A DNA stretch of 64,000 nucleotides from a bacterium (GCA_040390065.1 JAZJZE010000004.1:76969-140968), one strand, 5' to 3'. Shown: positions 28,149-40,956, counted from the stretch's first letter. Notes: generated by a model from the sequence alone, not told the origin. Numbers and translations: made by a program.

Positions 28149-28224
28149 GGGAGATTAGCCGAGACAGGTCCAAGGCAGCGGACTCTTAATCCGCCATTCA
28201 CCGGTTCGAATCCGGTATCTCCCG
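28149..28224 (+). tRNA. tRNA-Lys(CTT)
   Basis: Acceptor GGGAGAT/ATCTCCC, anticodon arm GCGGA-CTCTTAA-TCCGC, T arm ACCGG-TTCGAAT-CCGGT; no encoded CCA. Confidence 0.95.
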
Positions 28225-28346
28225 CTACTTTACCCGCAAACCCTTTTCCCCCCTCGTTGCTTTCCCACTCTAATGGGACCCAACGGGGAAATCAGGAGTA
28301 GTTTCGCCTCACCCTCGACGGGAAATGACCCCCGGGCAGGTGCCTG

Positions 28347-28901
28347 ATGGCACTCGACAAGACGCTGACGATCAAGCAGCGCCGGGTCGACATCTACCTG
28401 CCCACCTTGGACGCGAGGGGCAAGTGGATTGCGGCCGCTGCCAAGCGCAACCTGAGCCTCTCCGCGTTCGTCTTCCAAGCCATGGAGATGGAGCTCCAGA
28501 AGGACGCCCTGGAGGGCCTGGAGCGGGCCAGTGCGGCAGACTTGGAGAAGGAGCTGACTGACCTTCGCTTGGCCAATGCTGACCTGCGCCGCCGCGTCGA
28601 GGAACTGAACGTCCTGAATCACCGCGCCGAAGCCGACCTGGCGGAATACCGGGCGCAACACATCGTCGGGCCCGAGCCGGTCAAGCACCTCGACCCCCGC
28701 CTCATCAGCATCCTATCCGAAGCCAAGGGACGCGACGGCCGCTTCCGCGCCCTCGACGTGGCCGAACTGCGGCGGGAGCTGCGCCTGAACCCCAAGAACC
28801 CCACCGAATTGCAGGCCCTGTCACGCCAACTCGAGTACCTCGAGGTCCACAAAGTCGTCCGGCGCTCGCCGAAGGGGTGGGTGTGGAATGACAAGGAGTA
28901 A
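28347..28901 (+). CDS. Element DNA-binding protein (RHH-like N-terminus, coiled coil, wHTH-like C-terminus)
   Basis: RRVDIYLP...AAKRNLSLSAFV; heptad region; overlaps the integrase start. Confidence 0.6.
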   Translation: MALDKTLTIKQRRVDIYLPTLDARGKWIAAAAKRNLSLSAFVFQAMEMELQKDALEGLERASAADLEKELTDLRLANADLRRRVEELNVLNHRAEADLAEYRAQHIVGPEPVKHLDPRLISILSEAKGRDGRFRALDVAELRRELRLNPKNPTELQALSRQLEYLEVHKVVRRSPKGWVWNDKE

Positions 28902-29817
28902 ACCTAACGCCGGGCTCCTCGAGGCCTACGAACGGGACGCCAAACTGCAAGGCCTCTCCGACCTGACTCTGAAGGCCTACAAGCACGGCATCGAGACCTT
29001 CCTTGGCTACCTGGGGACTAATCCAGTAGCCAAGGTCACGATCAAAGACCTGGCCGAGTACCTTGGGAACCAGAAAGACCAGAAGCTGGACCCCCGCACC
29101 CTCAGCGGCCGCATCTCGGCCCTGTCCAGTTTCTTCGAATTCCTCGAGTTCGAGGGCAAGATCAAGGGCAACCCAGTGCCCGGCTTCCGTCGGCGCTACC
29201 TTGGGACGCTCCGGCGAGAACTCGGCAAGAAGAAGTCCGACCGGAAGCTCGTCGCGGTCGAGCAACTGCGGGCAATGCTACAGACCGTGGTCGACGCACG
29301 CGACCGCTGCATCATCGGACTGCTGGCCAAGACTGGCATGCGCCGCGACGAACTCGTGCAACTCGATGTGCGCAGCATCGACCTCACCAAACAGACCGTC
29401 GACATCAAGCCGCACCCCAAGCGGACGAACTGCCAGGTGTTCTTCGACGACGAGACTGGTCGAGTCCTGCGGAGGTGGTTGGCGGTTCGCCGAGCACGCA
29501 CGGGAACGGACGCCGGACCGCTGTTCGTCGGCCAGCGAGGAAACCGCATCAATGGGGATGCGGTGAATGACGCCGTCTCAGCCGCGGCCAGGAACGTGGG
29601 CCTGCACGACCCAGAAGGACCCTTGAAGGACCGCTTCACGGCTCACAATCTGCGGCATTTTTTCACCACGCACCTTCGACGTGGCGGCATGACGCGCGAG
29701 CACATAGCGTGGCTTCGCGGCGACGCCGGCAACGACTCGATGGACGTGTACATGCACATCGACCCAGACCAGGTTCAACAGGCGTATCGGAGCGCGATTC
29801 CGCAACTCGGGCTCTGA
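28888..29817 (+). CDS. Tyrosine recombinase/integrase (XerA-like)
   Basis: TGMRRDEL, K, HNLRH, LRGD, Y in MDVYMH. Confidence 0.95.
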   Translation: MTRSKPNAGLLEAYERDAKLQGLSDLTLKAYKHGIETFLGYLGTNPVAKVTIKDLAEYLGNQKDQKLDPRTLSGRISALSSFFEFLEFEGKIKGNPVPGFRRRYLGTLRRELGKKKSDRKLVAVEQLRAMLQTVVDARDRCIIGLLAKTGMRRDELVQLDVRSIDLTKQTVDIKPHPKRTNCQVFFDDETGRVLRRWLAVRRARTGTDAGPLFVGQRGNRINGDAVNDAVSAAARNVGLHDPEGPLKDRFTAHNLRHFFTTHLRRGGMTREHIAWLRGDAGNDSMDVYMHIDPDQVQQAYRSAIPQLGL

Positions 29818-29832
29818 CCGCGAAGGCGCACC

Positions 29833-30780
29833 ATGACAAGGCACAACCGTTCCCGCCCACCAGCGGACGAGCCCGAATTGCCGCCCCTGGAGGTGCGCCC
29901 GCGCGAAAGCGGCCGGGAGTCGGGTGATCAAGTTCGTGCAGCCGTCTACGCAAGGACAAGCTCTCGTCGGCAGCACACTGTCCCCGTGCAGCTTGAACTG
30001 TGCCGCAAACGCTGCCTCGACCGGGGCTGGCGTGTGTCCTATGCAATCAAGGACGAAGGCCTGAGCGGTGCGAGTGCGGAAAGGCCAGGATTCCAACGTC
30101 TTCTCGACCTAGCATCAGATGCCAAGATCGACGTCGTGGTCGTGTGGAAAATTGATCGGCTAGCGCGGAGCCTAGCCCACGCAACGAGCATTGAGGAAAT
30201 CTTCCGCGAGAACGGTGTAGCCATTCACAGTTGTACTGAACCAATCGACACGACCACGGCAACGGGCCGCTTCATGTTTGGAACCCTCGCCAATGCCGCT
30301 CAACTTGAGCGGGAGATCATAGGCGAGCGCTCCCGAATGAGCCTGCAGGATCTGGCACAAAGGGGTCGTTGGGCTCGTCCTCGAATCCCTTTCGGGTATC
30401 GCCGGAGCAAAGGCAAGAACATCCGGATTCACGACGGCGAGGCCGCGGTCGTTCGGGCCGTCTTTGAAGCGTACCTCGCCGGGCAGAGCCTCAATGAGGC
30501 GTCATTCGCCCTGAACCGCGATGGCTTTACGTTCCGAGGCAAGCCTTGGACCCAGGAACGCGTCCGAATGATCATCGACAATCGAATTTGCGTAGGAGAG
30601 TTCAATGTCTCGGGAGTGCAGAAGCACCTGCCCAAGTTGGCCATTGTACCGCGTGAACTGGCGGAATCGGTCTGGACGCTCCGCAGCGAATCCCCCCGAA
30701 GTGGAAAGGCCGCAACGCCTGACGCGCGAGAACTGGCAATTGACTCTGTCTTCAGGCAATACCTAGCCAGCCTCGAATGA
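29833..30780 (+). CDS. Large serine recombinase
   Basis: YARTSS, DEGLSG...RPGFQRL, VVWKIDRLARS, PFGY. Confidence 0.9.
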   Translation: MTRHNRSRPPADEPELPPLEVRPRESGRESGDQVRAAVYARTSSRRQHTVPVQLELCRKRCLDRGWRVSYAIKDEGLSGASAERPGFQRLLDLASDAKIDVVVVWKIDRLARSLAHATSIEEIFRENGVAIHSCTEPIDTTTATGRFMFGTLANAAQLEREIIGERSRMSLQDLAQRGRWARPRIPFGYRRSKGKNIRIHDGEAAVVRAVFEAYLAGQSLNEASFALNRDGFTFRGKPWTQERVRMIIDNRICVGEFNVSGVQKHLPKLAIVPRELAESVWTLRSESPRSGKAATPDARELAIDSVFRQYLASLE

Positions 30781-32205
30781 GGCCGGAACTCCTGGCAGTT
30801 TGGATTGCGCCGGGACGCGAAGTGTTGGTTCGATTGGTGGGCTCGCCCCAATCCGCGACGGGTGCGCCTCCTCTTGAGCCGGACGTTGGCGGTTCTTCAG
30901 GAGCTGATTCATGTGATGGCCAGGATAGAGAGTGGTGTGGGCATCCTTAGGGCGCGTGCAGATGCGGATGTCGCGCCCGCCATGGTGGGGGTCACTTGCT
31001 ACCCGGAGCCGGGTCGGAAAGCCACAGATGCCTCCATGGGGCATTTGTCGCCTGCATACGGGGCCTTCCGAGACTTTTTCGGCCTCGTCAATCACGTCAC
31101 GGCCATGCTCTTCTATCAACTGCGTGCGCTTGGGTTTGCGGCGTGGCTTGCGCATCAACAGCGCAGCCCCCACGAGGCGACGCAACTCTTGGACTTGGGG
31201 GCGTGTGTAGACAGCCAGATGCTGCAACCTAGCGATGCCGTCGCTCTCCCAGCCCGTGACTAGATCATCGTTCACTTCCTCTACGAGACGGTCAATGCTC
31301 AACCCCGGCGCCACGGCGCGACGTCCTCGCACCAGGGCACGTAGCGTCTCGAGCGTCGGCTTGCCGCGCATCTGGGTCAACAGCCCTTTTGCGAATTCGT
31401 CAGCATCTGCGTGCTTCTCGAAGGCCCACGGTGGTTCGCCTTTGACGGTCCGTTGCACCGTTTCGGTCGGCGACAGACGGCGGGTCGCATAGAAGGCGGT
31501 CATGCGCTGCTGACGCGCCAGCCCCTTGCGGTGGTAGGCCTCGAAGACCTCGGTGACGCTCTTGCCCCGTTTTGTGTTCTCATTCTCTGCCGTGGCAAGG
31601 GCCCGGGTAACCTCCGCGTAGTCCCTCGGAATGCGAACGTCCTTCAGCAGAATTCTGTCGTCGAAGTCGTCGCCGTAGCCCAGGAGCTTGCCATCGTCAC
31701 GGAGGAGCCATGCAACTTGGGTACCGCAGCGCATGCAGCGGGCAAAGCGCGTAAGGTCGGAGACAACGAGCGCCCGTACGTCCTCCAGGGCCCGCAATGC
31801 GCCGACCGCGGCCGCAAAGCCCTCCCGGCCCTTGACGAACTGCCAGCCGCGTGAGTCCGTATCCCAGGCAATGGCAAGCGGTACCATGCTTCCAGCCCGG
31901 GTGGCGCGCAAGGTCCGGCGTGTCCAGGCACTGATGGCCAACTTCTCTTCGGCGTCGATGCTCCGCCTAACGTAGCCAATCACGAAACGCTCGGGCTTGC
32001 AATCGCATTCGGTCCCGTGCCGGCCGAGAATGTGTTCGTAAGCGGCCAAGTAGCCTAGCCCTTGAGGTGCCGAAACGTCGAGTCCAAGCCAGAGGATGCC
32101 GCCCTTCTCCCCGGCGTTCACTCTCTTTTGGACCTCCTCCGCGACCTCATCCTCCATAACTTCCCACGGTGTTTCTTTAATATGAAAAACCTTGGATTTT
32201 TCCAA
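30763..32205 (-). CDS. Divergent serine-recombinase-family protein
   Basis: IGYVRRS, DTDSRG, REGF, LVVSDLTRFAR, E.EN; Cys-containing C-terminus. Confidence 0.65.
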   Translation of the reverse strand: MEKSKVFHIKETPWEVMEDEVAEEVQKRVNAGEKGGILWLGLDVSAPQGLGYLAAYEHILGRHGTECDCKPERFVIGYVRRSIDAEEKLAISAWTRRTLRATRAGSMVPLAIAWDTDSRGWQFVKGREGFAAAVGALRALEDVRALVVSDLTRFARCMRCGTQVAWLLRDDGKLLGYGDDFDDRILLKDVRIPRDYAEVTRALATAENENTKRGKSVTEVFEAYHRKGLARQQRMTAFYATRRLSPTETVQRTVKGEPPWAFEKHADADEFAKGLLTQMRGKPTLETLRALVRGRRAVAPGLSIDRLVEEVNDDLVTGWESDGIARLQHLAVYTRPQVQELRRLVGAALLMRKPRRKPKRTQLIEEHGRDVIDEAEKVSEGPVCRRQMPHGGICGFPTRLRVASDPHHGGRDIRICTRPKDAHTTLYPGHHMNQLLKNRQRPAQEEAHPSRIGASPPIEPTLRVPAQSKLPGVPASFEAG

Positions 32206-32596
32206 GAAGTTGGCCTTCTCCCTTCTGGCCGAGAAGCCAGAGGAATTGAAGGGCGTCTACAAGGCAATCAACAGTATGGCCGCAAGTTGGGACGCCATCA
32301 AGAAGGATGTGGCCGAAACCGTCCCGCAGCCGAAGGCGAAGGCCAAACCGTTCGGAACTCCCGGCAAGAGGAGCGCCCTACTGCTTGATGACGAAGACCA
32401 AGCATCAACCGCCACCGCTGACATTTCTGCGGTGGCAGACGATCCAGCGATGCGCAAGAAGGTTGCAGACGCAACGATCGATGCCATTACTGAAGCCGAG
32501 GACAAGCGCAAAGCACAGGATAAGAAAGAAAAGCCGCTAGCCTTGCTCAAGAACGCTAACAACAATCTGGCGATTGCAAGGGCCGCTTCTTCTTGA
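32192..32596 (+). pseudogene. Probable gene fragment (lower GC, Lys-rich)
   Basis: Composition differs from the host; overlaps the start of the neighbour; no clear motif. Confidence 0.35.
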
Positions 32597-32963
32597 CTCG
32601 TCATGAACATTCGGTGGCCGTTGCAAACAAGCGATACCAGTTGCACGTTTGGATGGACATTAAGGGAGGGCCCGAACTGCTTGTGGTATCGCGTGGCGAT
32701 TTGCTCCAAAACTCACCGGAGGACCGGCGCGGAAGTGCATGGCAAGATGCCGAGATTTCGATCGCCAGCTTGTACCATTCCTAGGAGGCCATGCCGACCG
32801 GGGTCAAGGGAGGTTGGCGTCGACCGTCCACGCAGGCGGGAATTTGGCCGCGCTCGAGAACCTGCAGGATACGTCTTCAGGGCCATCTTCGTGCTCGTCG
32901 GCTGGAACGTCTAACCCCCAAGGCTGCGTGGGCGGGGTCGCCGCCCACGCAACCCGTGTTTGC

Positions 32964-33119
32964 TTAGTCGCTGAGGACAGCGGCTGCGATAGCAAGGATT
33001 CCGCCGATGGCGATTGCGCCAAGGACGAATGCTCCTGTTTCGCTCGTAGTGATCCTCGTGCACAGTTTGTCGTAGCACAGGTCCACCTCGCCGAAGTGTT
33101 GGTGCGGAGTGTCTTTCAC
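32964..33119 (-). CDS. 51-aa tail-anchored membrane microprotein
   Basis: GGAGGTGA Shine-Dalgarno before GTG; MKDTPHQHF...GAFVLGAIAIGGILAIAAAVLSD; below the ORF-track cutoff. Confidence 0.6.
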   Translation of the reverse strand: MKDTPHQHFGEVDLCYDKLCTRITTSETGAFVLGAIAIGGILAIAAAVLSD

Positions 33120-33167
33120 GGATTCACCTCCTTCCACCGACCGGGGGAAAGGGGGTGAGGTGGGGGC

Positions 33168-33425
33168 TCATTCCTTGCCCTCCGGGTGCAGCAGGTCTGT
33201 TACGGTCTCGATTGCTGCCTTGTTGGTCTGGAGCGTGCGGAGGAGGACCGCGATGGCATGGAAGAAGTCCTTCCAGCTCAAGTCGAGGTCGTTCTTCAGC
33301 TCCGTGATTGTCTTGAGGTCCGCCGCGTAGAATTCCACGAGAGTGCGGTGCGTCTTGTCCTTGTTGCGTGTGAACAAGGGCACGAGCGACTGAAGCTCTG
33401 GCGGCAGGGTTGTCCCGTCAGCCAT
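33168..33425 (-). CDS. Small hypothetical protein
   Basis: 85 aa, preceded by GGAGG, overlaps the upstream microprotein. Confidence 0.65.
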   Translation of the reverse strand: MADGTTLPPELQSLVPLFTRNKDKTHRTLVEFYAADLKTITELKNDLDLSWKDFFHAIAVLLRTLQTNKAAIETVTDLLHPEGKE

Positions 33426-33540
33426 CGTTGGCCTCCATGATGGCCTTCAGCGCCAGGAGGCCTAGGGCTATGCCGCCGAACAGGATGATGGCCTTCGCCA
33501 CGTCCTCGCCGTTGACGCCGGAACCTTGGGGGTTAGCCAT
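33418..33540 (-). CDS. 40-aa membrane microprotein
   Basis: MANPQGSGVNGEDVAKAIILFGGIALGLLALKAIMEANDG. Confidence 0.55.
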   Translation of the reverse strand: MANPQGSGVNGEDVAKAIILFGGIALGLLALKAIMEANDG

Positions 33541-33938
33541 AGTAGTACGCTGAATGTATCAGTCAGAGTATCAGATAAGGTTTGTCCTCCACGTGATCGC
33601 GATGTGTCGACCTGGCGCATTTGTGAGCTCCCCGTCTTTGCAGGGCTTTGCTTCAGGTGGAAGCGTTCACAAATCCGGCCCTCGCCTTGGCGCCGACAGG
33701 GGGAACGCGAGCCATTCACGCAGCGTTCACACCACGAGGATTGCGGCTTCCCGTGGCTCCCCAAATACCCCACACAGTTCAGCGAGTTCGTGACCGCTGA
33801 CGTCCAACTTCCCTTATGCGACTGGGCACATCCCGGTCGCGGGTTCCCCCAGCAGGCAATGGCGCGCCTCCAGCACGACCACGCGGAGGAGTGCCCGTGG
33901 GCCTAGAAAGCGCCACGCCGGGCTCGCCCCTCCTGGAC

Positions 33939-33972
33939 TTACGGGCAAACTCTAGTGACAATCCGGTCTGCC
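33939..33972 (+). repeat. attR-like site 1
   Basis: TTACGGGCAAAC-N5-TGACAATCCGGT-CTGCC. Confidence 0.8.
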
Positions 33973-34082
33973 CGGCCGTCTTCCCGTAGGAAACCCCGGC
34001 CAGGGGGTTGGCATTCTTCATGCTTGAGGCCGCTCCCAGCGGGCGCGGTCGTTCCGCGCGCAAACGGCATCGTCGGGCATTC

Positions 34083-34925
34083 CTACGTTTCGTCGATTGG
34101 CCTGGCCTCGTCCCAATAGTGGAGGAACAGGTCGCGGCACCAAGCCACGAACGCCGGGTCACCCCCGACGAACGCGTTCCGGAAGTCAATCTGGCCGGCC
34201 GCACTCTCGAACTGCAAAATGGCCAGGCCGTCCGTCACGGCAATAGCGACTGGCCCCCGTTGCAGAAGCCTGGTCTTGAAGACGGGCCCGAAGCGTTTCG
34301 GGAAGGCCTTCAACACCAAGGCGAGCTCGCTTTCGAGCAGGATGGCTCGTGCATCGGCTCGGGAGGTTTTCACGCGCTCCGCGATGAGGGCGTTGAGTCG
34401 GATCTGGTCGCCAGTGGGACCTGGTGCGCCGATGATCCATTGGCCGTAGAACCGGGAGTCAATCGTTTCCGTCAGGCGACCAAACACGGCGCCAATCTCG
34501 AACGGGTCGCTCAGAAGCTGGGCCTTGCCGAGGACGTGCAGGTTCGCTAGGAACGGTCGGGGCAGGGACTCGATCGGATGGGCCTGGAAGAAGCTGGAAT
34601 GCCGCGCCAAGAATTCCAACGATTCCGCGTGCGTCAAGGCTGCGTTTGACACGCCGGCCAGGCGGAACAAGCCGTCCTGCCCCTTGGTCACCAGGCCAGA
34701 CTCGACGAGCCTTGCCAGATTGCGAGAAACTTCGCTTTCCGTGCCTCCAGCGCGGTGCGCGATGTCCGTGTACCGCAGAGGGCCGTCTTGCAGGGACTGG
34801 GCAATGGCGAGCCGCCCTCTGGCGAACAGTTCTTGCGCCAGCCCGGCGGCATCGGCCAAGCGACCCGGTTCGACCGGGAGACTTCCGGAACCACCGTCGG
34901 AATCGCTCTTGAGACTCCGACGCAT
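34083..34925 (-). CDS. ArsR-like HTH regulator with C-terminal sensor domain (archaeal FilR1/DUF1724-like)
   Basis: SEVSRNLARL...GLV.K; AWCRDLFLHYW..A C-terminus. Confidence 0.75.
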   Translation of the reverse strand: MRRSLKSDSDGGSGSLPVEPGRLADAAGLAQELFARGRLAIAQSLQDGPLRYTDIAHRAGGTESEVSRNLARLVESGLVTKGQDGLFRLAGVSNAALTHAESLEFLARHSSFFQAHPIESLPRPFLANLHVLGKAQLLSDPFEIGAVFGRLTETIDSRFYGQWIIGAPGPTGDQIRLNALIAERVKTSRADARAILLESELALVLKAFPKRFGPVFKTRLLQRGPVAIAVTDGLAILQFESAAGQIDFRNAFVGGDPAFVAWCRDLFLHYWDEARPIDET

Positions 34926-34989
34926 AGGGGTTGACTGGCATCACGGTAGATGAAGGCGTCCTCGACGTCTTTTCGATGCGACGTGCACC

Positions 34990-35865
34990 ATGATCGCGAC
35001 CTCCACCACGACGACAGACCAGAACAAGGCCACCGTGCGACGGTTCCTCGAGCGCGTGGTGAACCAGAATGAGTACCAGGTCGTGGACGAGTTGTTCGCT
35101 CCTGAATACGTGCTTCACATCGCGGGCGACCCTGAGCCAAAGGTCGGCCGAGACCACGTCCGCTATGTTGCCAAGATGTTCCGGGCGGCGTTTCCGGATT
35201 GGAAGAATGCGGTCGACCAACTCGTCATGATGGCGGAGGGGGATTGCGTGATGACGCGCTGGAGGGAATCGGGGACCCACCGCGGCGAATTTCAGGGGGT
35301 TGCACCCAGCGGCCGGCGCGTGATCTTGGAGGGCATGGATATGTTCCGTTTCGCTGGCGGGAAGATCGTCGAGCAATGGCTGGAGGCAGACCTGGCCGGA
35401 TTTCGGCGTCGCCTGGTCCAAAGGGTGCCAGGGGCGAGCCCGTTGACCGATTCAGCCCTGCAGGATTGGGCGCGCCGCATGAAGGACGACATCATCAACG
35501 CTCACGACCCGGCTGCGGCTGCGCTCTACTATGCGCCCACGTTTTCCACGCGCAATCCAATCCCAGGACGGCGCCCCGGCCTCGACGGCCTGCAAGAGGC
35601 GCTCCGGGAGTTCTTCATCGCCTTCCCCGATGTGCAGGAGACCGTGGAGGAGGTCGTCGCCGACGGCGACCACATCGCCATGGTCGGTACCATCCGCGCC
35701 ACTCACGGCGGCCCCTTTGCAGGGGTCCCGGCCAGCAACCGCCGCGTGACGTTCCGCATCTTCGAGCAGCACCGCCTCGAGGCCGGCAAGATTGCCGACG
35801 GCTGGGTGTTCATTGACGTGCCTGGGCTGATGCAGCAAATTTCCCCAGCCGCACTGGGCACATGA
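34990..35865 (+). CDS. Tandem SnoaL-like ester cyclase
   Basis: Two repeats of AFPD...AEGD.V...GTH.G.F.GV..SGR.V...GKI. Confidence 0.9.
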   Translation: MIATSTTTTDQNKATVRRFLERVVNQNEYQVVDELFAPEYVLHIAGDPEPKVGRDHVRYVAKMFRAAFPDWKNAVDQLVMMAEGDCVMTRWRESGTHRGEFQGVAPSGRRVILEGMDMFRFAGGKIVEQWLEADLAGFRRRLVQRVPGASPLTDSALQDWARRMKDDIINAHDPAAAALYYAPTFSTRNPIPGRRPGLDGLQEALREFFIAFPDVQETVEEVVADGDHIAMVGTIRATHGGPFAGVPASNRRVTFRIFEQHRLEAGKIADGWVFIDVPGLMQQISPAALGT

Positions 35866-36106
35866 GAAACGGGGCGAACCACTTCCGGGTTCCGTGGAAT
35901 CCTTTTCGAAGAGGTTCAATTCGTGGCCGAGTAGGTCATTCGGCAAATCGGGAAGCGCCTGCAGGACAAATCGGAAGCTCGATTTTGGTTGGATTCGAGC
36001 AGGAACCGCAATCATGGCTGCCTCCCCATGGGGCACCGCATCTTGACTTGACCGCCGCTACCGCGTTCGGGGTTGGATGGAGTCCCAGCTCCACGACTTG
36101 AGGCCC

Positions 36107-36403
36107 TTAGACGAGGCCGCGGTTGTGAAGCTCCTCGGCCACGGCGACAAGCATGGCTGGGCGTTCCACCTCCGGGTAATGCGTTGAGCGCCACTCCGAC
36201 ATGATGAACCCGCTCCGGACCACCTTGGCGTCCCGCTCCAAGCGATTCAATGCGCCCCGAACCCGGGCCACCTGCGCCTGCGTCGCCCATTCCCCATGGA
36301 GCTCGTTGGCAATCTGCCTGGCCTCCATCCACCGCCCCCGATGGGCCGGCCCATTGAGGATTGCCGCCACTTCCCGTTGCGCCTTGCCCTGGCTCATGTG
36401 CAT
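36107..36403 (-). CDS. Small winged-HTH hypothetical protein
   Basis: EARQIANEL...RVRGALNRLERDAKV. Confidence 0.5.
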   Translation of the reverse strand: MHMSQGKAQREVAAILNGPAHRGRWMEARQIANELHGEWATQAQVARVRGALNRLERDAKVVRSGFIMSEWRSTHYPEVERPAMLVAVAEELHNRGLV

Positions 36404-36493
36404 AGATGGAGGCGCCGCGTTCTTAGGATTACCGCGAAACAAACGGGGGTTTTGCGAACGGCTCGGTCTGCGTGAAAGCAACGATTGCACCGC

Positions 36494-37462
36494 CTAGGTG
36501 CGGGTGCCCGTGATGCCCTCGTAGACGGCGCGCACTGCAGGGTCTGCCGCGTCTGGGACCCGGTTGAGGCGGTCCTGGATGAGCGGCATCATGAGTCGCA
36601 GACCGCCGACCTCGTGACTGGCCGGCCCAGCGGGCGGCTCGGGGCCGCACACCAGCACTGCGGGCGCGCAGGCCCAGGGGTTCACATCCGTCGGCACGGT
36701 GTAGTAGGTGACGTGCATGCCGGCTGAGGCCAGTGCTTGGTAGAGGCGCTCGGCCTGCTCGGCTGAAACCCAGGTGTCTCCGGGGGCGTAGACGAGGTAG
36801 GCGCGCTGCAAGCCCTTCGACGCCATCTGGGGTGCGAGGTCGACGGGGGACCGCTGGGAGTAGGCTGCGGGGACCTGGCTAGGAGTTCCGCCGGTCTCCT
36901 GTTCGATGAGGGACTGCACGGCGTGGTCTTCTTGCCACGTGGCAGCCAGGTCGGCTACACCCGCGCCATCGAGCCAGTAGTCGAACGTGCCATTGGGCGC
37001 CTGCGCGACGGCCATGCCAGACACTTCGCCGCCCATGCTCCAACCGTACAGGATCGTGAGATTGACGCTCGGCCAGGCCGCCTTCACGGCCAGGGTTGCC
37101 GCCACCGTGTCGTTGGCGCCCGCCTGCACCTTCCATGGGTGGTCGCCGCGGTAGTCCATTGCGACGGCCAGAGCTCCACCCGCAGCGACTTGTTCGAGGC
37201 CAGTACGGAACAACGTCGCGTTGGTGCCGAATGGATGAGCGAAAACGACGAGCGAGGTGGGGTTAGCGGCGGTTGGGACGGCAAGAAGTCCCGTTGCGTT
37301 CATGCCGTCAACCACGAGCGAGATAGCATGCACGCCTTGCTCGCGAGGAATCGCGGGCAACGGCGGCACCTGGACAGAGCCGTGGTCCGCTTGGCCGGCG
37401 GGACCGGTGCATCCACTAGCCAGAAGGGCTATCGAAAGTAGGAGCAGGGGGCGCGTCGCGAT
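36494..37462 (-). CDS. Alpha/beta hydrolase lipoprotein (S9-like)
   Basis: GWSMGG nucleophile elbow, YSQRSP, D and H; in-frame lipobox LLASGC upstream of the annotated GTG at 37369. Confidence 0.75.
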   Translation of the reverse strand: MATRPLLLLSIALLASGCTGPAGQADHGSVQVPPLPAIPREQGVHAISLVVDGMNATGLLAVPTAANPTSLVVFAHPFGTNATLFRTGLEQVAAGGALAVAMDYRGDHPWKVQAGANDTVAATLAVKAAWPSVNLTILYGWSMGGEVSGMAVAQAPNGTFDYWLDGAGVADLAATWQEDHAVQSLIEQETGGTPSQVPAAYSQRSPVDLAPQMASKGLQRAYLVYAPGDTWVSAEQAERLYQALASAGMHVTYYTVPTDVNPWACAPAVLVCGPEPPAGPASHEVGGLRLMMPLIQDRLNRVPDAADPAVRAVYEGITGTRT

Positions 37463-37618
37463 GGTTCAGGGGGTCGCCAGCGGCCCCATAAGCCTTGGCT
37501 CGGTACGCCCGCTCGCCGGAAGAAGCCATGGCAAGCAGGCCCGGAACCTGGCATGCAGCCCCCATCGACCTGGCATGTACCGGCACGTCACCGGCAGCAC
37601 CGCGTCCGCGCCGCAGAG

Positions 37619-37714
37619 GGCGCAACCGCCAATCTCCCGCCGATTTGCCCCGCACCATGTACAGGAGGTACCGCTAGGATTTACGGGCAAACTTCCTTGA
37701 CAATCCGGTCTGCC
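37619..37714 (+). repeat. attR-like site 2 (91-bp copy of the attR region)
   Basis: Ungapped match to 40650-40740 with about 8 mismatches, ending in TGACAATCCGGT. Confidence 0.85.
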
Positions 37715-38140
37715 GCCCGGCCATGCATGCAGCCGACCGTCGCCTACAGCGCAATCGCTTTGGGAGCTTTGGATTGTACGGCAACCCCGTGAGGGGCGAC
37801 CCTCGAAATCCTTTTCCGGACCGAGGGCCGTGGCGAGAAACATGGTACCGATCCCCTGCCCCCGATGCCAGTCCGGCATGATCCCAGCGGCGGCGGACAC
37901 CCTCCAATGCCTGGCGTGCGGCTACCGAGCGGCAATGGCCCTTCAACCGCTGCCCAACGAGGGGTACATGCCGGTCGAAAGCCGCAACGACGAGAACCAG
38001 CGTCGGTGCCTCCGCTTTTCCGCTAGATGCCGATATCTAAAGAGCGCCGCCTTCCTGTTGATGTGAACCCCCGGAAGGCAGGTGAACCCCCGGTGACCGC
38101 AAGCCCCACCGGAAGGGGCATTGGGCTGTCGGCCGGCGTC

Positions 38141-38464
38141 TTAGAAGCAGGCCTCGACCACGCTCCCGATGGAATGCTGCTCATCAATGCCAAGCGGGAA
38201 ATCGTCTTTGCCAACCGCCGCGCTGTCGATTGGGCCACAGGGCGTGGTGCGGTTATCGACGGCAGCACCTAGGAATTGCCCGGAGACGACCGCCTGCCCT
38301 GCAATAGTTGCGTCGGCGGCCTGGATGGTCCCGGCGCTTTCCGCTCCGCCCGGTAGGGCAAGGAGAAGAAGGATGAGTAGGCCAACAGACAGCATCTCCT
38401 GCTGCATGCCCCGTCCTAGGGGCGGGCTCGATTTCTCATTTGCTAGTTGCCGATAATCAGGCAC
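38141..38464 (-). pseudogene. Possibly truncated secreted/membrane protein
   Basis: Signal peptide MLSVGLLILLLLALPGGAESA then a short remainder. Confidence 0.4.
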
Positions 38465-38628
38465 TCGGGATGGAAATAGTAGTCCGGAGGGTCAAGAGAA
38501 TAGGCGAACCACGTGCAGTATGGGGGCAAAGGGGGATGATCTGACGGGGGCACAGGCTCATCCGCCACGACCATCGGGGCGGCCAATATCAATAGGCATC
38601 CAACGAGAGCATACGCTAGTGTTTTCAT
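38443..38628 (-). CDS. Small secreted Cys-pair peptide
   Basis: Signal peptide + DEPVPP...YCTWFAYSLDPPDYYFHPECL. Confidence 0.65.
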   Translation of the reverse strand: MKTLAYALVGCLLILAAPMVVADEPVPPSDHPPLPPYCTWFAYSLDPPDYYFHPECLIIGN

Positions 38629-39015
38629 GCATTTCACCGGCTGCCCGAAGCAGCCGGCTGACCCGAAGCGGGCGCGCTATTTTGCGCGATTTCGCGGCAA
38701 CGCGCTGGCCAAGCAAACGCTTGTTTGAGCGGCTTTTCGGACCACGTCAACGTTCCATTGCCTGCGGTTCTTCATGACATCGGGTCGACGGCCCGCCGCG
38801 ACGCCGCCGAAGGCAATTTGGCCGTGTAGGCGGCCGCCTTGCCTGGTGAGGCCGCGGGCGGCTAATGGCGGACTTAATTGGCGCGGCGGCCTCGGCGCCG
38901 AAAACCAATGACTGTCCGACAGTATGTTTCGTCTACCATGGTTCCATGGAGCGCGGCTCCGTTGTCCGCCGGAACTCTTTTCGCCTTCGCCCAGGATGCT
39001 CGCGCTGGTCCTACC

Positions 39016-39222
39016 ATGACCATCGCCCGCACCCTCGTCTTGACTGGCTTGCTGATTCTGACCGCCGCTACGCTGGCACCGATGGCCAGCGCCCAGCCGG
39101 ACAACGTGTACGTGTGCGCCTACGGCGTCAACGGCGGCTGCGAACCCGGCCACATCGCCGAGGTCCACGTCAAGGGCCACGTCGTTTACGTCCCGGACCC
39201 GTGCTACACGACCGCCTGCTGA
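39016..39222 (+). CDS. Small secreted Cys-rich peptide
   Basis: Signal peptide ending ASA; mature part about 42 aa with 4 Cys, ends DPCYTTAC. Confidence 0.7.
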   Translation: MTIARTLVLTGLLILTAATLAPMASAQPDNVYVCAYGVNGGCEPGHIAEVHVKGHVVYVPDPCYTTAC

Positions 39223-39283
39223 AGATGGGTGCCATCGGGTGGACAGCAGTCCTAAAGTAGTTGATTCGCTAATAAGCTAATTG

Positions 39284-40084
39284 ATGAATCAACCCGGCGG
39301 GGGCGCCTCCCGAGACGAAATCATCGCCATCCTGCTGGTTGCGGCAGCGGCAGGCGGCCTAGGATATGCCTTAGGCCGGGCCTCGGCAAGGGCTAACCCA
39401 GCACAAGCTGGCTTGCCTCCGCATGCCCTACTTGCCCCCACACCGCTCAAGCAGATTGCCGCCGAAGCTGGGATGCAGCCGCCAACCGCGTTGGCCCACC
39501 TGCGCAAGCTGCAGGACCAAGGCAAGCTCCAACGCATCCAAACCTCCGAGGGACCGCGATACGCCGTCCTTCCGTACGTCAGCTGCGAGTGGACCGATCC
39601 GGACCACGGAATCCAGACCGCCTGGCAAAGCACGCACTCCGTGGACTGGCGGTTCCCCCTCGTGTCGCGTGTCCCGGACGCCTCGGCTCAAGACTTCCTC
39701 TACGAATGGCTTGACCGTGCCCAGGCGCGCGGCCTCCTGCCACCGGCCCGCTCCAGGTTTGAGGCCCAATCCCCCAAGCCGCATCTTCTCCAAGCCGTGG
39801 TCTACGGGTCCTGCGCTCGCGGCCCCGCCCCTTCGAAGTCGGACGTCGACATCCTGCTGTACGGAGACATCCCAAAGACGCAGGTCGAGAAACTCAAGGA
39901 CCTCGGCCACGAGATTGCCCTAAAGGGCGGAAGACCCCCCGACATCCGCTCGATTGACGCGGCCGGCTGGTCCAAAGCAACGCCCGCCTTCCGGGAATCC
40001 ATTCAGCGAGAAGGCCGAACCGTGTACTCGAACGAATTCGGCGGCCTTTTCCTGGAACGGCCCCTCGGCGCCCAACATGCCTGA
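39284..40084 (+). CDS. HTH + minimal nucleotidyltransferase (MNT) protein
   Basis: LKQIAAEAGM..PTA..HL.KL HTH; YGSCARG....SDVDILL. Confidence 0.85.
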   Translation: MNQPGGGASRDEIIAILLVAAAAGGLGYALGRASARANPAQAGLPPHALLAPTPLKQIAAEAGMQPPTALAHLRKLQDQGKLQRIQTSEGPRYAVLPYVSCEWTDPDHGIQTAWQSTHSVDWRFPLVSRVPDASAQDFLYEWLDRAQARGLLPPARSRFEAQSPKPHLLQAVVYGSCARGPAPSKSDVDILLYGDIPKTQVEKLKDLGHEIALKGGRPPDIRSIDAAGWSKATPAFRESIQREGRTVYSNEFGGLFLERPLGAQHA

Positions 40085-40436
40085 GAGTGCACTCCTGCAG
40101 CTCGCGGAGAGCTATCTCCGAACGGCCCGGGCGGCGCTCGAGGCAGGCGATATTGCGCCGGCCTACGAGACCGCGCGCACCGCCTGCGAACTGGCCGCCA
40201 AGGCAATCCTCGACCAGCGCGGGATTCCCACGAGCGGCAAGGAACACAACGTGGCTCCTCAGCTTGTGCAGGCTGGAGCATGGCCCGGCGGCGATCCGGG
40301 CAAGCGACTCTCCAAGTTCCTCAACGACTACACGCGGGGCGTCTACGGCGTTGGCGAGACCATTGCTCGGAAAGAAGCCGAACGCGGCGTCGCCCTCGCA
40401 GAACAGATGATCAAGAAGGCCAAGGGTCATGGCTAG
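40077..40436 (+). CDS. HEPN-domain protein
   Basis: A..YL..A...A..ACELAAKAIL...H...Y.R..Y; overlaps the MNT gene. Confidence 0.85.
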   Translation: MPESALLQLAESYLRTARAALEAGDIAPAYETARTACELAAKAILDQRGIPTSGKEHNVAPQLVQAGAWPGGDPGKRLSKFLNDYTRGVYGVGETIARKEAERGVALAEQMIKKAKGHG

Positions 40437-40649
40437 GCCGTGGCCAGGGAAAACAATGCTCGGCGCGAACCGAACTACAGGGTTCGCGACTCGACCAGCC
40501 GTGCCATGCAGATTCCCAGTTCGACGCGCGCTTTCTCCTCTCCTGCCACCCCGGAGGGCTGCTAACAATCGATGCGGAACTCGCGCAAACGAGACGGCCT
40601 GGCCTGAGCGCCTTGAGTGGACCCTCCGGTTTGGGAATCCGCCGCCGAT

Positions 40650-40750
40650 GGCGCAACCGCCATTCTCCCGCCGATTTGCCCCGCACCATGTACTGGAGAC
40701 ACCCCTACCGTTTACGGGCAAACTTCCTTGACAATCCGGTATCTCCCGCT
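40650..40750 (+). repeat. attR (site 3, full tRNA 3' duplication)
   Basis: TTTACGGGCAAACTTCCTTGAC + AATCCGGTATCTCCCGCT. Confidence 0.9.
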
Positions 40751-40956
40751 CAAGCATCGCCGGCGCGAAGCGCTCGGCGGCTGCAGCCGGGGAATACCGG
40801 TTCGCCGAGGCGCCAGGCAAAGCAGCGCCGATGGTAACCCTGCGGTTCTGCTTGCGGGGCCGCCGCGCCGAATCCGGTCTCTCCCGCTCTCTGGCATTGG
40901 CGCGTGCGACGTATCCGCCCATATCCTGATATCCCGCTTCATCTCAGGCCGATTCC

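Follow-up and report, generated by a model that had tools for sequence, protein, structure and literature searches.

The window analysed here is a stretch of 64,000 nt (GCA_040390065.1 JAZJZE010000004.1:76969-140968) from an uncultured Thermoplasmatota archaeon, whose genome (G000) is a metagenome bin of 50 contigs, 2.68 Mb in size and 89% complete. It contains an intact tRNA-Lys(CTT) gene (28149..28224/5, plus strand; detected by ARAGORN and by the Rfam tRNA model with 62.7 bits), followed by an island of about 12.5 kb that consists of three modules in series. The target tRNA is intact at one end of the island and a direct repeat of its 3' part is present at the other, as is typical of integrated elements, and no tRNA gene was detected inside the island by ARAGORN or Rfam. 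The last 18 bp of the tRNA gene (28209-28226, AATCCGGTATCTCCCGCT) form the core of the left attachment site (attL) and are supplied from the island side. Since only one copy of tRNA-Lys(CTT) was found in the genome, and AAG accounts for 87% of the Lys codons in 774 long open reading frames (ORFs), loss of this tRNA should be costly.

Segment 1 (28227..33959), the integrase-bearing and tRNA-restoring 'anchor' of the island, carries genes for Orf184, a tyrosine integrase (Int) and a serine recombinase, a 480-aa ORF and small ORFs. Segment 2 (33968..37701, 3.7 kb) contains four ORFs, and segment 3 (37710..40732, 3.0 kb) contains small ORFs and a nucleotidyltransferase/HEPN pair. Segments 2 and 3 lack recombinase genes, as an initial annotation of the window had stated and as gene scans and tblastn bore out. 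The same annotation had stated that relatives in which they are decayed full elements with integrases of their own would speak against its reading; when the segment 1 proteins were used as tblastn queries, no remnant of Int or Orf184 was found in segments 2 and 3 or in the island of a sister genome, G010, described below (best E = 0.12). The first genes of segments 2 and 3 begin about 115–120 bp past the start of the module.

Each of the three modules ends at a copy of a 29-bp motif, located at 33939, 37681 and 40712. All three copies are on the plus strand with 0 mismatches, the expectation from 100 shuffles being 0.00 on average. In the whole genome (50 contigs, 2,677,426 bases), the 29-mer and its arm 12-mer are confined to these three positions. 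The 18-bp 3' end of the tRNA gene is present twice, inside tRNA-Lys (28209) and at site 3 (40733), and AATCCGGT followed by CTGCC is found exclusively at sites 1 and 2. Site 1 (33938..33977, plus strand) is composed of an arm (a palindrome and ten further nucleotides, N10), the 8-bp sequence AATCCGGT (33960-33967) and the continuation CTGCCCGGCC, and can be read as a chimera in which the right arm of segment 1 is joined to the left arm of segment 2. Site 2 (37609..37722, plus strand) has a right arm of about 100 bp, AATCCGGT (37702-37709) and the continuation CTGCCGCCCGGCC. Site 3 (40640..40750, plus strand), the terminal right attachment site (attR) of the whole array, has a right arm of the same type followed by the full 18-bp tRNA end (40733-40750), and is the only site to run on into ATCTCCCGCT. 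At sites 1 and 2, only 8 bp of the tRNA end are kept, after which both continue with CTGCC(GCC)CGGCC.

Sites 2 and 3 can be aligned without gaps over 101 nt with 90% identity (37609-37709 and 40640-40740). None of the 10 mismatches falls within the last 33 of the 101 positions, leaving the palindrome-N10-core block identical in the two sites (chance about 0.02 by our own estimate). The edges of homology coincide with the core: the likeness of sites 2 and 3 extends from -90 to +8, with no relation beyond, and that of sites 1 and 2 only from -20 to about +18. The tRNA remnant at site 3, which is non-functional, is perfect (10/10), and sites 1 and 2 share one different sequence of 10–13 nt at this place. 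On the other side of the island, a quasi-palindrome (TTTACCCGCAAAC, 28229..28241, plus strand; P') begins 20 nt past the start of the core. The initial annotation had described the threefold direct repeat of the motif, the ungapped likeness of sites 2 and 3, the switch after the 8-bp core at sites 1 and 2, and a near-inverted arm behind the tRNA (TTTACCCGCAAA, 28229-28240), and all of these were found as described.

Int (28888..29817, plus strand, 309 aa) is XerA/XerC-like, with a SAM-like N-terminal domain and a catalytic domain (PF00589, 84 bits; PF02899, 40 bits), and its gene lies 660 bp from attL, so that a tyrosine recombinase gene is present beside the att site. It scored 157.8 bits with the XerA model NF040815, below the cut-off of 220, and is therefore not assigned as a XerA equivalog. 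Orf184 (28347..28901, plus strand), which overlaps the start of the integrase gene, has no family in Pfam, NCBIfam or PHROGs. Its predicted structure (mean predicted local distance difference test score, pLDDT, 76.6) comprises a helical N-terminal part, a long coiled coil and a C-terminal winged-helix-like domain. Orf184 and its homologues have an invariant YLP and W near the N-terminus and a C-terminal part ending in W.W. A fold search gave weak winged-helix matches, none at E ≤ 0.001, and a profile search of PDB gave coiled-coil and weak helix-turn-helix (HTH) matches only; an assignment as a ribbon-helix-helix protein, guessed from the sequence, was not borne out by the predicted model. We propose, from this model of medium confidence and the weak winged-helix matches, that Orf184 may be a DNA-binding accessory factor of the integrase.

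Relatives of Int were found in other genomes of the class, sharing 36–51% identity with it and each located behind an Orf184 homologue. Three of the five loci lie directly behind a tRNA gene (one in G040, at tRNA-Gly, and two in G032, at tRNA-Ser), with integrases 36–37% identical to that of the window. The order tRNA, Orf184 homologue, integrase is thus common to the window, G040 and both G032 loci, in all of which, as in G001, the Orf184 homologue is directly upstream of the integrase gene; the G001 contig has no tRNA gene. In the metagenome collection a single locus with 28% identity to Int was found, and in the viral collection none.

The far ends of two of these elements could be located, in G040 (22 kb) and in G032 (13.4 kb). 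The attR of G040 consists of TTTACCAGTAAA, 10 nt, and 20 nt matching the tRNA end from AATCC onwards, and the same palindrome is found 20 nt in on the attL side. In G032, TTAATATTAA occurs at the corresponding distances, within 1–2 nt. We found that the three window sites, three sites of G010 (s0, sA and sB) and the G040 attR all have the palindrome at -22..-11, then N10 and the identity block, beginning at AATCC of the T-loop. On the attL side, the palindrome is at +20 in the window and G040 and at about +21 in G032, the two palindromes being roughly symmetric about the first 10 bp or so of the identity block. This geometry shows that the motif is a genuine att arm of this XerA-like integrase family and that the three sites are, as initially annotated, att-type sites of the family to which the island integrase belongs. 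By gene order and att geometry, the window element fits an Orf184-Int family of Thermoplasmatota, which is defined here. A review of archaeal tyrosine recombinases (PMC8371274) places the effective recombination sites nearer to the 5' end of the identity block and mentions att sites of as little as 8 bp in archaea. At the sites described here, strand exchange would have taken place within the 8–9 bp.

The closest relative of the window element is on contig C229 of G001 (17.1 kb), with Int 51% and the serine recombinase 50% identical, and with Orf184. Just upstream of Orf184 on this contig (2895-2962), an arm-like sequence and a palindrome are only about 18 nt apart, and the contig ends do not overlap. 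The arm-like sequence resembles the site 1 arm, and its pairing with the palindrome indicates that the site 1 arm and the attL side belong together in G001. This site may be the unintegrated (attP) form or may correspond to a different target.

In the window, site 3 is followed by a native downstream spacer (40751..40888, plus strand), which ends with an old, degenerate fourth copy of the tRNA end (40871-40888, one mismatch), 138 bp past site 3, that the initial annotation had overlooked. The arrangement of a tRNA gene, about 140–170 bp and a remnant is present in G007 and G001 without any island, and the window remnant is homologous to theirs, including the CGCCG that precedes AATCC. More generally, tRNA-Lys genes of the genus often have extra copies of the 3' end 70–230 bp downstream with no gene between. 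Such a copy is present at 2 of 10 tRNA-Lys(CTT) loci (G007, +173; G001, +142), and one or two are present at 3 of 8 second tRNA-Lys-like loci (G007, +102; G003, +118 and +229; G011, +110); shorter repeats of the tRNA end, judged by eye, were seen in G005 and G006. The tRNA-Lys loci of the genus are thus old recombination hot spots that have been used repeatedly, and the gene-free mini-arrays may be relics or minimal units consisting of an att site only. Each mini-array unit opens with a hairpin-like sequence in several genomes of the genus, including the window (40751-40888), G007 and G001.

A second gene-carrying array was found in G010, a sister genome of the same genus (metagenome bin, 65% complete), on a 15.7-kb contig. 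It is located at the other isoacceptor, tRNA-Lys(TTT), which is followed by a spacer of about 190 bp, site 0 (the arm motif and TATCCCTCA, then unrelated sequence) and a BNR-repeat gene. Next come site A (the arm and AATCCCTCA, then unrelated sequence) and 5.8 kb with genes for a PP2C protein, a Ser/Thr kinase, a DUF3224 protein and an HTH-FHA protein. The array closes with site B (the arm and the complete tRNA end, 16 nt), after which the spacer is repeated and a degenerate site with the tRNA end follows. The internal sites of G010 have only 9 bp in common with tRNA-Lys(TTT), (A/T)ATCCCTCA, and these are not the tRNA-Lys(CTT) version; the att core thus covaries with the adjoining tRNA (CCGGT vs CCCTCA). 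To the right of sites 0 and A, the sequences are homologous and in register, sharing an 11-mer and a 9-mer at equal offset. The site A arm matches the site 2/3 arm of the window with 71% identity over 73 nt, so that the ~100-bp right-arm type is joined to three different cargos, namely segments 2 and 3 of the window and segment A of G010. The cores of the gene-free mini-arrays are full length, cores of 8–9 bp being restricted to the two gene-carrying arrays.

The G010 spacer is duplicated on both sides of the cargo as a repeat of about 205 bp (tRNA end, spacer and site; mean column identity about 83% over 223 columns). The import of a composite and the insertion of cargo into the second unit of a mini-array would explain this repeat equally well, and it was therefore not taken as proof of composite transfer. 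The kinase has paralogues in G012 (55% and 51%) with no att motifs nearby.

The initial annotation had also called for a search for the motif in the whole genome and in relatives; this yielded the three window sites and, in addition, the G010 array, which follows the same rule. A scan of the genome-contig collection gave 17 stretches, one of which is the G010 contig while the other 16 are bacterial, about the number expected by chance. No copy was found in the metagenome contigs, in the viral contigs or in 40 relatives. With up to 2 mismatches allowed, 9 of the 197 genomes of the class had one two-mismatch match each, besides G000 and G010, compared with 7 in a reversed control; six of these nine were read, and none has an inverted repeat or a tRNA end at the match.

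Taken together, these comparisons make it probable that the locus is a tandem array formed by site-specific recombination at the 3' end of an archaeal tRNA-Lys(CTT) gene and composed of one complete element and two integrase-less modules. This rests on the architecture of the locus, the arm homologies, the att geometry found throughout the family and the parallel array in G010, all directly observed. We infer that Int, probably together with Orf184, made these joints, and the modules may still be able to move. With a, b and b' denoting the left-hand sides of sites 1, 2 and 3, and x, y, y' and z the right-hand sides behind the tRNA, at site 1, at site 2 and in the chromosome, the order would be tRNA-core-x [segment 1] a-core-y [segment 2] b-core-y' [segment 3] b'-core-z. 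Each internal junction would then have the form P(i)+overlap+P'(i+1), with the 8-bp exchange region AATCCGGT placed between the right arm of one module and the left arm of its successor. The pairing of two sibling modules behind a different element predicts that b resembles b' and y resembles y', that both are unlike a and x, and that the likenesses end at the edges of AATCCGGT, as is the case. Segments 2 and 3 therefore appear to be siblings. The circular forms would carry a-core-x (segment 1), b-core-y (segment 2) and b'-core-y' (segment 3), those of segments 2 and 3 being alike in having the ~100-bp arm, AATCCGGT and CTGCC(GCC)CGGCC.

Since the y-type left arms of segments 2 and 3 lack the tRNA acceptor end, entry of these modules would be possible only at an attR-type site distal to the tRNA; insertion into the tRNA gene itself would break tRNA-Lys(CTT). 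Excision would be constrained in a similar way. Recombination between attL and either of sites 1 and 2 would break tRNA-Lys(CTT), and only that between attL and site 3, which removes the whole array, would restore it, so that the anchor could leave cleanly only with all of its passengers, while recombination between sites 1 and 2, 2 and 3, or 1 and 3 would free passengers harmlessly. The initial annotation had divided the island into three parts and had taken it for an integron-like platform; the division into one integrase-bearing and two integrase-less modules stands, and the integron-like label is not supported. It had also argued that the internal sites differ from simple copies of the tRNA end, which is correct, and that simple accretion should leave the full 18-bp core at each junction. 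The latter holds only if every element restores the tRNA, since accretion of an element whose own left arm lacks the tRNA end yields exactly the sites observed.

Several observations weigh against this interpretation of the locus as a recombination-built array with integrase-less modules. The clear palindrome at +20 is missing at the internal sites (degenerate at site 1, absent at site 2), and just 10–13 nt are common to the left arms of the two passengers. Sites 1 and 2 therefore resemble attR in both respects, and a pair of such sites may not be a substrate. No integrase is encoded on the 15.7-kb contig of G010, and the three other PF00589 matches in that 65% complete genome include no close relative of Int. 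A second strain with the array was not found in searches of the genome-contig, metagenome and viral collections and of the class. The motif family is present in just 2 of 197 class genomes, so that the generality of the arrangement rests on two loci. In addition, both genomes being metagenome bins, a strain-chimeric join at the identical stretch of 30–33 bp may have occurred.

As a rival history, segments 2 and 3 could be the remains of older elements, once complete, that integrated at tRNA-Lys in succession and whose integrase ends were later deleted, which would make sites 1 and 2 fossil junctions with no activity today. Serial integration followed by decay is, in passages of PMC5704250, the commonest history of tandem islands, and it would agree with the abundance of tiny relic repeats of the tRNA end at the tRNA-Lys loci of the genus, with the host-like GC content of segments 2 and 3 and with the lack of a clear left-arm palindrome at the internal sites. 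However, no remnants of Int or Orf184 were found, and the modules start only about 115–120 bp ahead of their first genes. Moreover, two independent deletions would have had to stop at the same base after AATCCGGT and leave the same 10–13 nt, and G010 repeats the rule with a different core. Sites 2 and 3 do not differ anywhere in the palindrome-N10-core block, and the tRNA remnant of site 3 has not decayed; with this remnant intact and one alternative stretch of 10–13 nt common to sites 1 and 2, neither independent deletion nor neutral decay explains the pattern. We consider this history unlikely. An origin of the internal sites as copies of the site 3 arm made by gene conversion or duplication, or from the joining of strain variants by the assembler at the 30–33 bp in common, could be suspected from the 50-contig, 89% complete state of the bin and from the 90% likeness of sites 2 and 3 over 101 nt, yet it is hardly credible: the upstream arm of site 1 is different, so that site 1 is no copy of site 3, the same layout is present in the independent assembly of another species (G010), and each module is single, with site flanks that differ on both sides.

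A true integron-like platform would have the integrase capture, reshuffle and express single cassettes as a matter of routine, at a dedicated site beside its gene; this had been suggested by the label given to the island in the initial annotation. The modules are indeed integrase-less, each with one inferred recombination site, and all sites are co-oriented; one arm type is combined with different cargo, and the order of the modules could have arisen by repeated insertion next to segment 1. The label nevertheless failed on the three integron features examined, namely integrase family, attC-like folding and cassette organisation. Int scored only 41.9 bits with the integron-integrase model TIGR02249 (cut-off 265) and 20.6 bits with NF011946 (cut-off 435). 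The att sites fold no better than shuffled sequences, with z-scores of +0.53, +0.25, +0.59 and -1.28, none of the four having an attC-like fold and an inverted repeat of 6–8 bp with a loop of 31–42 nt being all that they form; the absence of attC hairpins had been correctly noted before. The modules contain 3–6 genes each, on both strands and with their own regulators, and only two arrays were found among the 197 genomes. Such a platform is very doubtful here.

More tentatively, the favoured reading of a tandem array could be extended to a form of archaeal gene capture by 'anchor and passengers', which we regard as possible, though less than probable. Integrase-less modules would carry a complete att site that does not restore the tRNA (arm palindrome, overlap of 8–9 bp and a left arm of their own), would insert only at decoy tRNA-end sites distal to the anchor, and would be exchanged singly by the XerA-like Int with Orf184, the mini-arrays of the genus serving as landing pads. 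Because partial excision would destroy the sole tRNA-Lys(CTT), the passengers would force the anchor to exit jointly with all of them.

Mobile DNA that piles up with passengers at integrase sites is known, and the array appears to be an unusual form of it. For bacteria it is established, according to passages of PMC5704250, that elements accrete in tandem, with chimeric att sites inside the array and with cis-mobilizable elements (CIMEs) that lack an integrase, and the examples given there, such as the ICESt1-related elements of Streptococcus thermophilus and the composite island at tRNA-Lys of S. agalactiae, are the closest known kind. Common to these and the window are several co-oriented att sites at the 3' end of tRNA-Lys, 'chimerical' internal att sites, integrase-less modules beside an integrase-bearing element and the potential for excision of the whole composite or of its parts. 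Both the window and G010 have at least three co-oriented att sites, chimeric internal sites and integrase-less modules flanked by att sites, as composites do. In contrast to CIMEs, which are described as decayed elements that keep full attL and attR, the two arrays have no decay remnants, and their internal sites share only 8–9 bp with the target, the left arms of the passengers lacking the tRNA end. The host of the window array is archaeal, the integrase is XerA-like and accompanied by Orf184, and no conjugation genes were seen in the island.

Tandem integration in archaea is mentioned in passages of PMC8371274, which also cite the three tRNA sublocations of Williams (2002). Like tRNA islands of the Islander type, the window island has a rebuilt tRNA gene, a 3' fragment as a direct repeat at the far end, an integrase gene by attL and an identity block starting from the T-loop; unlike them, it has not one right-end site but three in series, and the identity block is truncated in two of these. 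According to PMC10865867, tyrosine integrases of mycobacteriophages can use a core of about 10 bp that overlaps a tRNA gene without rebuilding it, the phage bringing a replacement tRNA gene, whereas the solution suggested by the window is a position distal to the element that restores the tRNA. With integrons, the array shares integrase-less modules in one orientation, each with one recombination site, beside a single tyrosine recombinase gene, but it has no IntI-type enzyme, attC hairpins or evident attI or Pc, its modules contain several genes on both strands, and it is anchored at a tRNA gene.

Xer-exploiting integrative elements (IMEX) lack an integrase and are stacked in tandem at dif, a short site recognised by a Xer-type recombinase. 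In the window, the Xer-like enzyme is instead encoded within the island, and the place of dif is taken by the 3' end of a tRNA gene together with long accessory arms. The mobile elements of uncultured Thermoplasmatota are barely described, and none of the papers listed in a literature search on Thermoplasmatota integrases and att sites deals with arrays of this kind. The locus defines the att architecture of a XerA-like integrase that is accompanied by a conserved partner protein and, with G010, provides two natural cases in which the exchange part of the identity block (8–9 bp) appears to be separated from the part that rebuilds the tRNA. If the modules are active, integrase-less DNA could be stacked on, carried by and possibly enforced on a helper element in archaea, which would be a route of gene capture distinct from integrons, and the short portable sites could be of use in archaeal genetic tools. 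Searches for a strain that has an empty site between two conserved flanks found none.

Two other origins for parts of the sites were considered and rejected. The ~100-bp arm is not a known RNA or a hairpin site, Rfam matching the tRNA only and the arm folding no better than shuffles. Likewise, CTGCCCG+G+CC is not the 3' end of another tRNA, because no tRNA of the genome ends in this way, the acceptor would have to begin with C, and 3 nt are inserted at site 2.

The remaining genes of the island are as follows. In segment 1, the short serine recombinase (29833..30780, plus strand, 315 aa) has resolvase and recombinase domains (PF00239, 136.8 bits; PF07508, 41.6 bits) and a Ccr/XisF-like N-terminal part. 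Within its gene, at 30304-30317, 14 nt match exactly, in inverted orientation, the last part of the core and the first 4 nt of the chromosomal flank (40741-40754); one such pair in 14 kb is about at chance level by a rough estimate. The 480-aa ORF (30763-32205) is on the minus strand, and GC content falls to 54–60% around 32.1–33.6 kb. Segment 2 encodes an archaeal-type winged HTH regulator (34083-34925, minus strand), a tandem SnoaL protein (34990-35865, plus strand), a further ORF (36107-36490, minus strand) and an S9-type hydrolase (36494-37369, minus strand). The SnoaL protein has no close homologue in 12 genomes of the genus, the best match being 39% over one domain. Segment 3 contains several small ORFs, of which two have signal-peptide-like N-termini (38443-38637, minus strand; 38878-39222, plus strand), an HTH-nucleotidyltransferase (39281-40084, plus strand) and a HEPN protein (39954-40436, plus strand). 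As listed, the last two ORFs overlap by about 130 nt (39954-40084), and the true start of the HEPN protein is probably further downstream.

Elsewhere in the genome, five PF00589 matches were found. Three tyrosine recombinase domain matches cluster on contig C5 (216451-219186 and 244361-244879), one of them about 4 kb from a tRNA-Met gene, and this cluster may represent other integrated elements. Contigs C5, C11 and C13 also have long ARAGORN calls (tRNA-Ile, 92 nt; tRNA-Asp, 96 nt; tRNA-Pro, 87 nt; one with a four-letter anticodon), which is consistent with archaeal tRNAs that contain introns.

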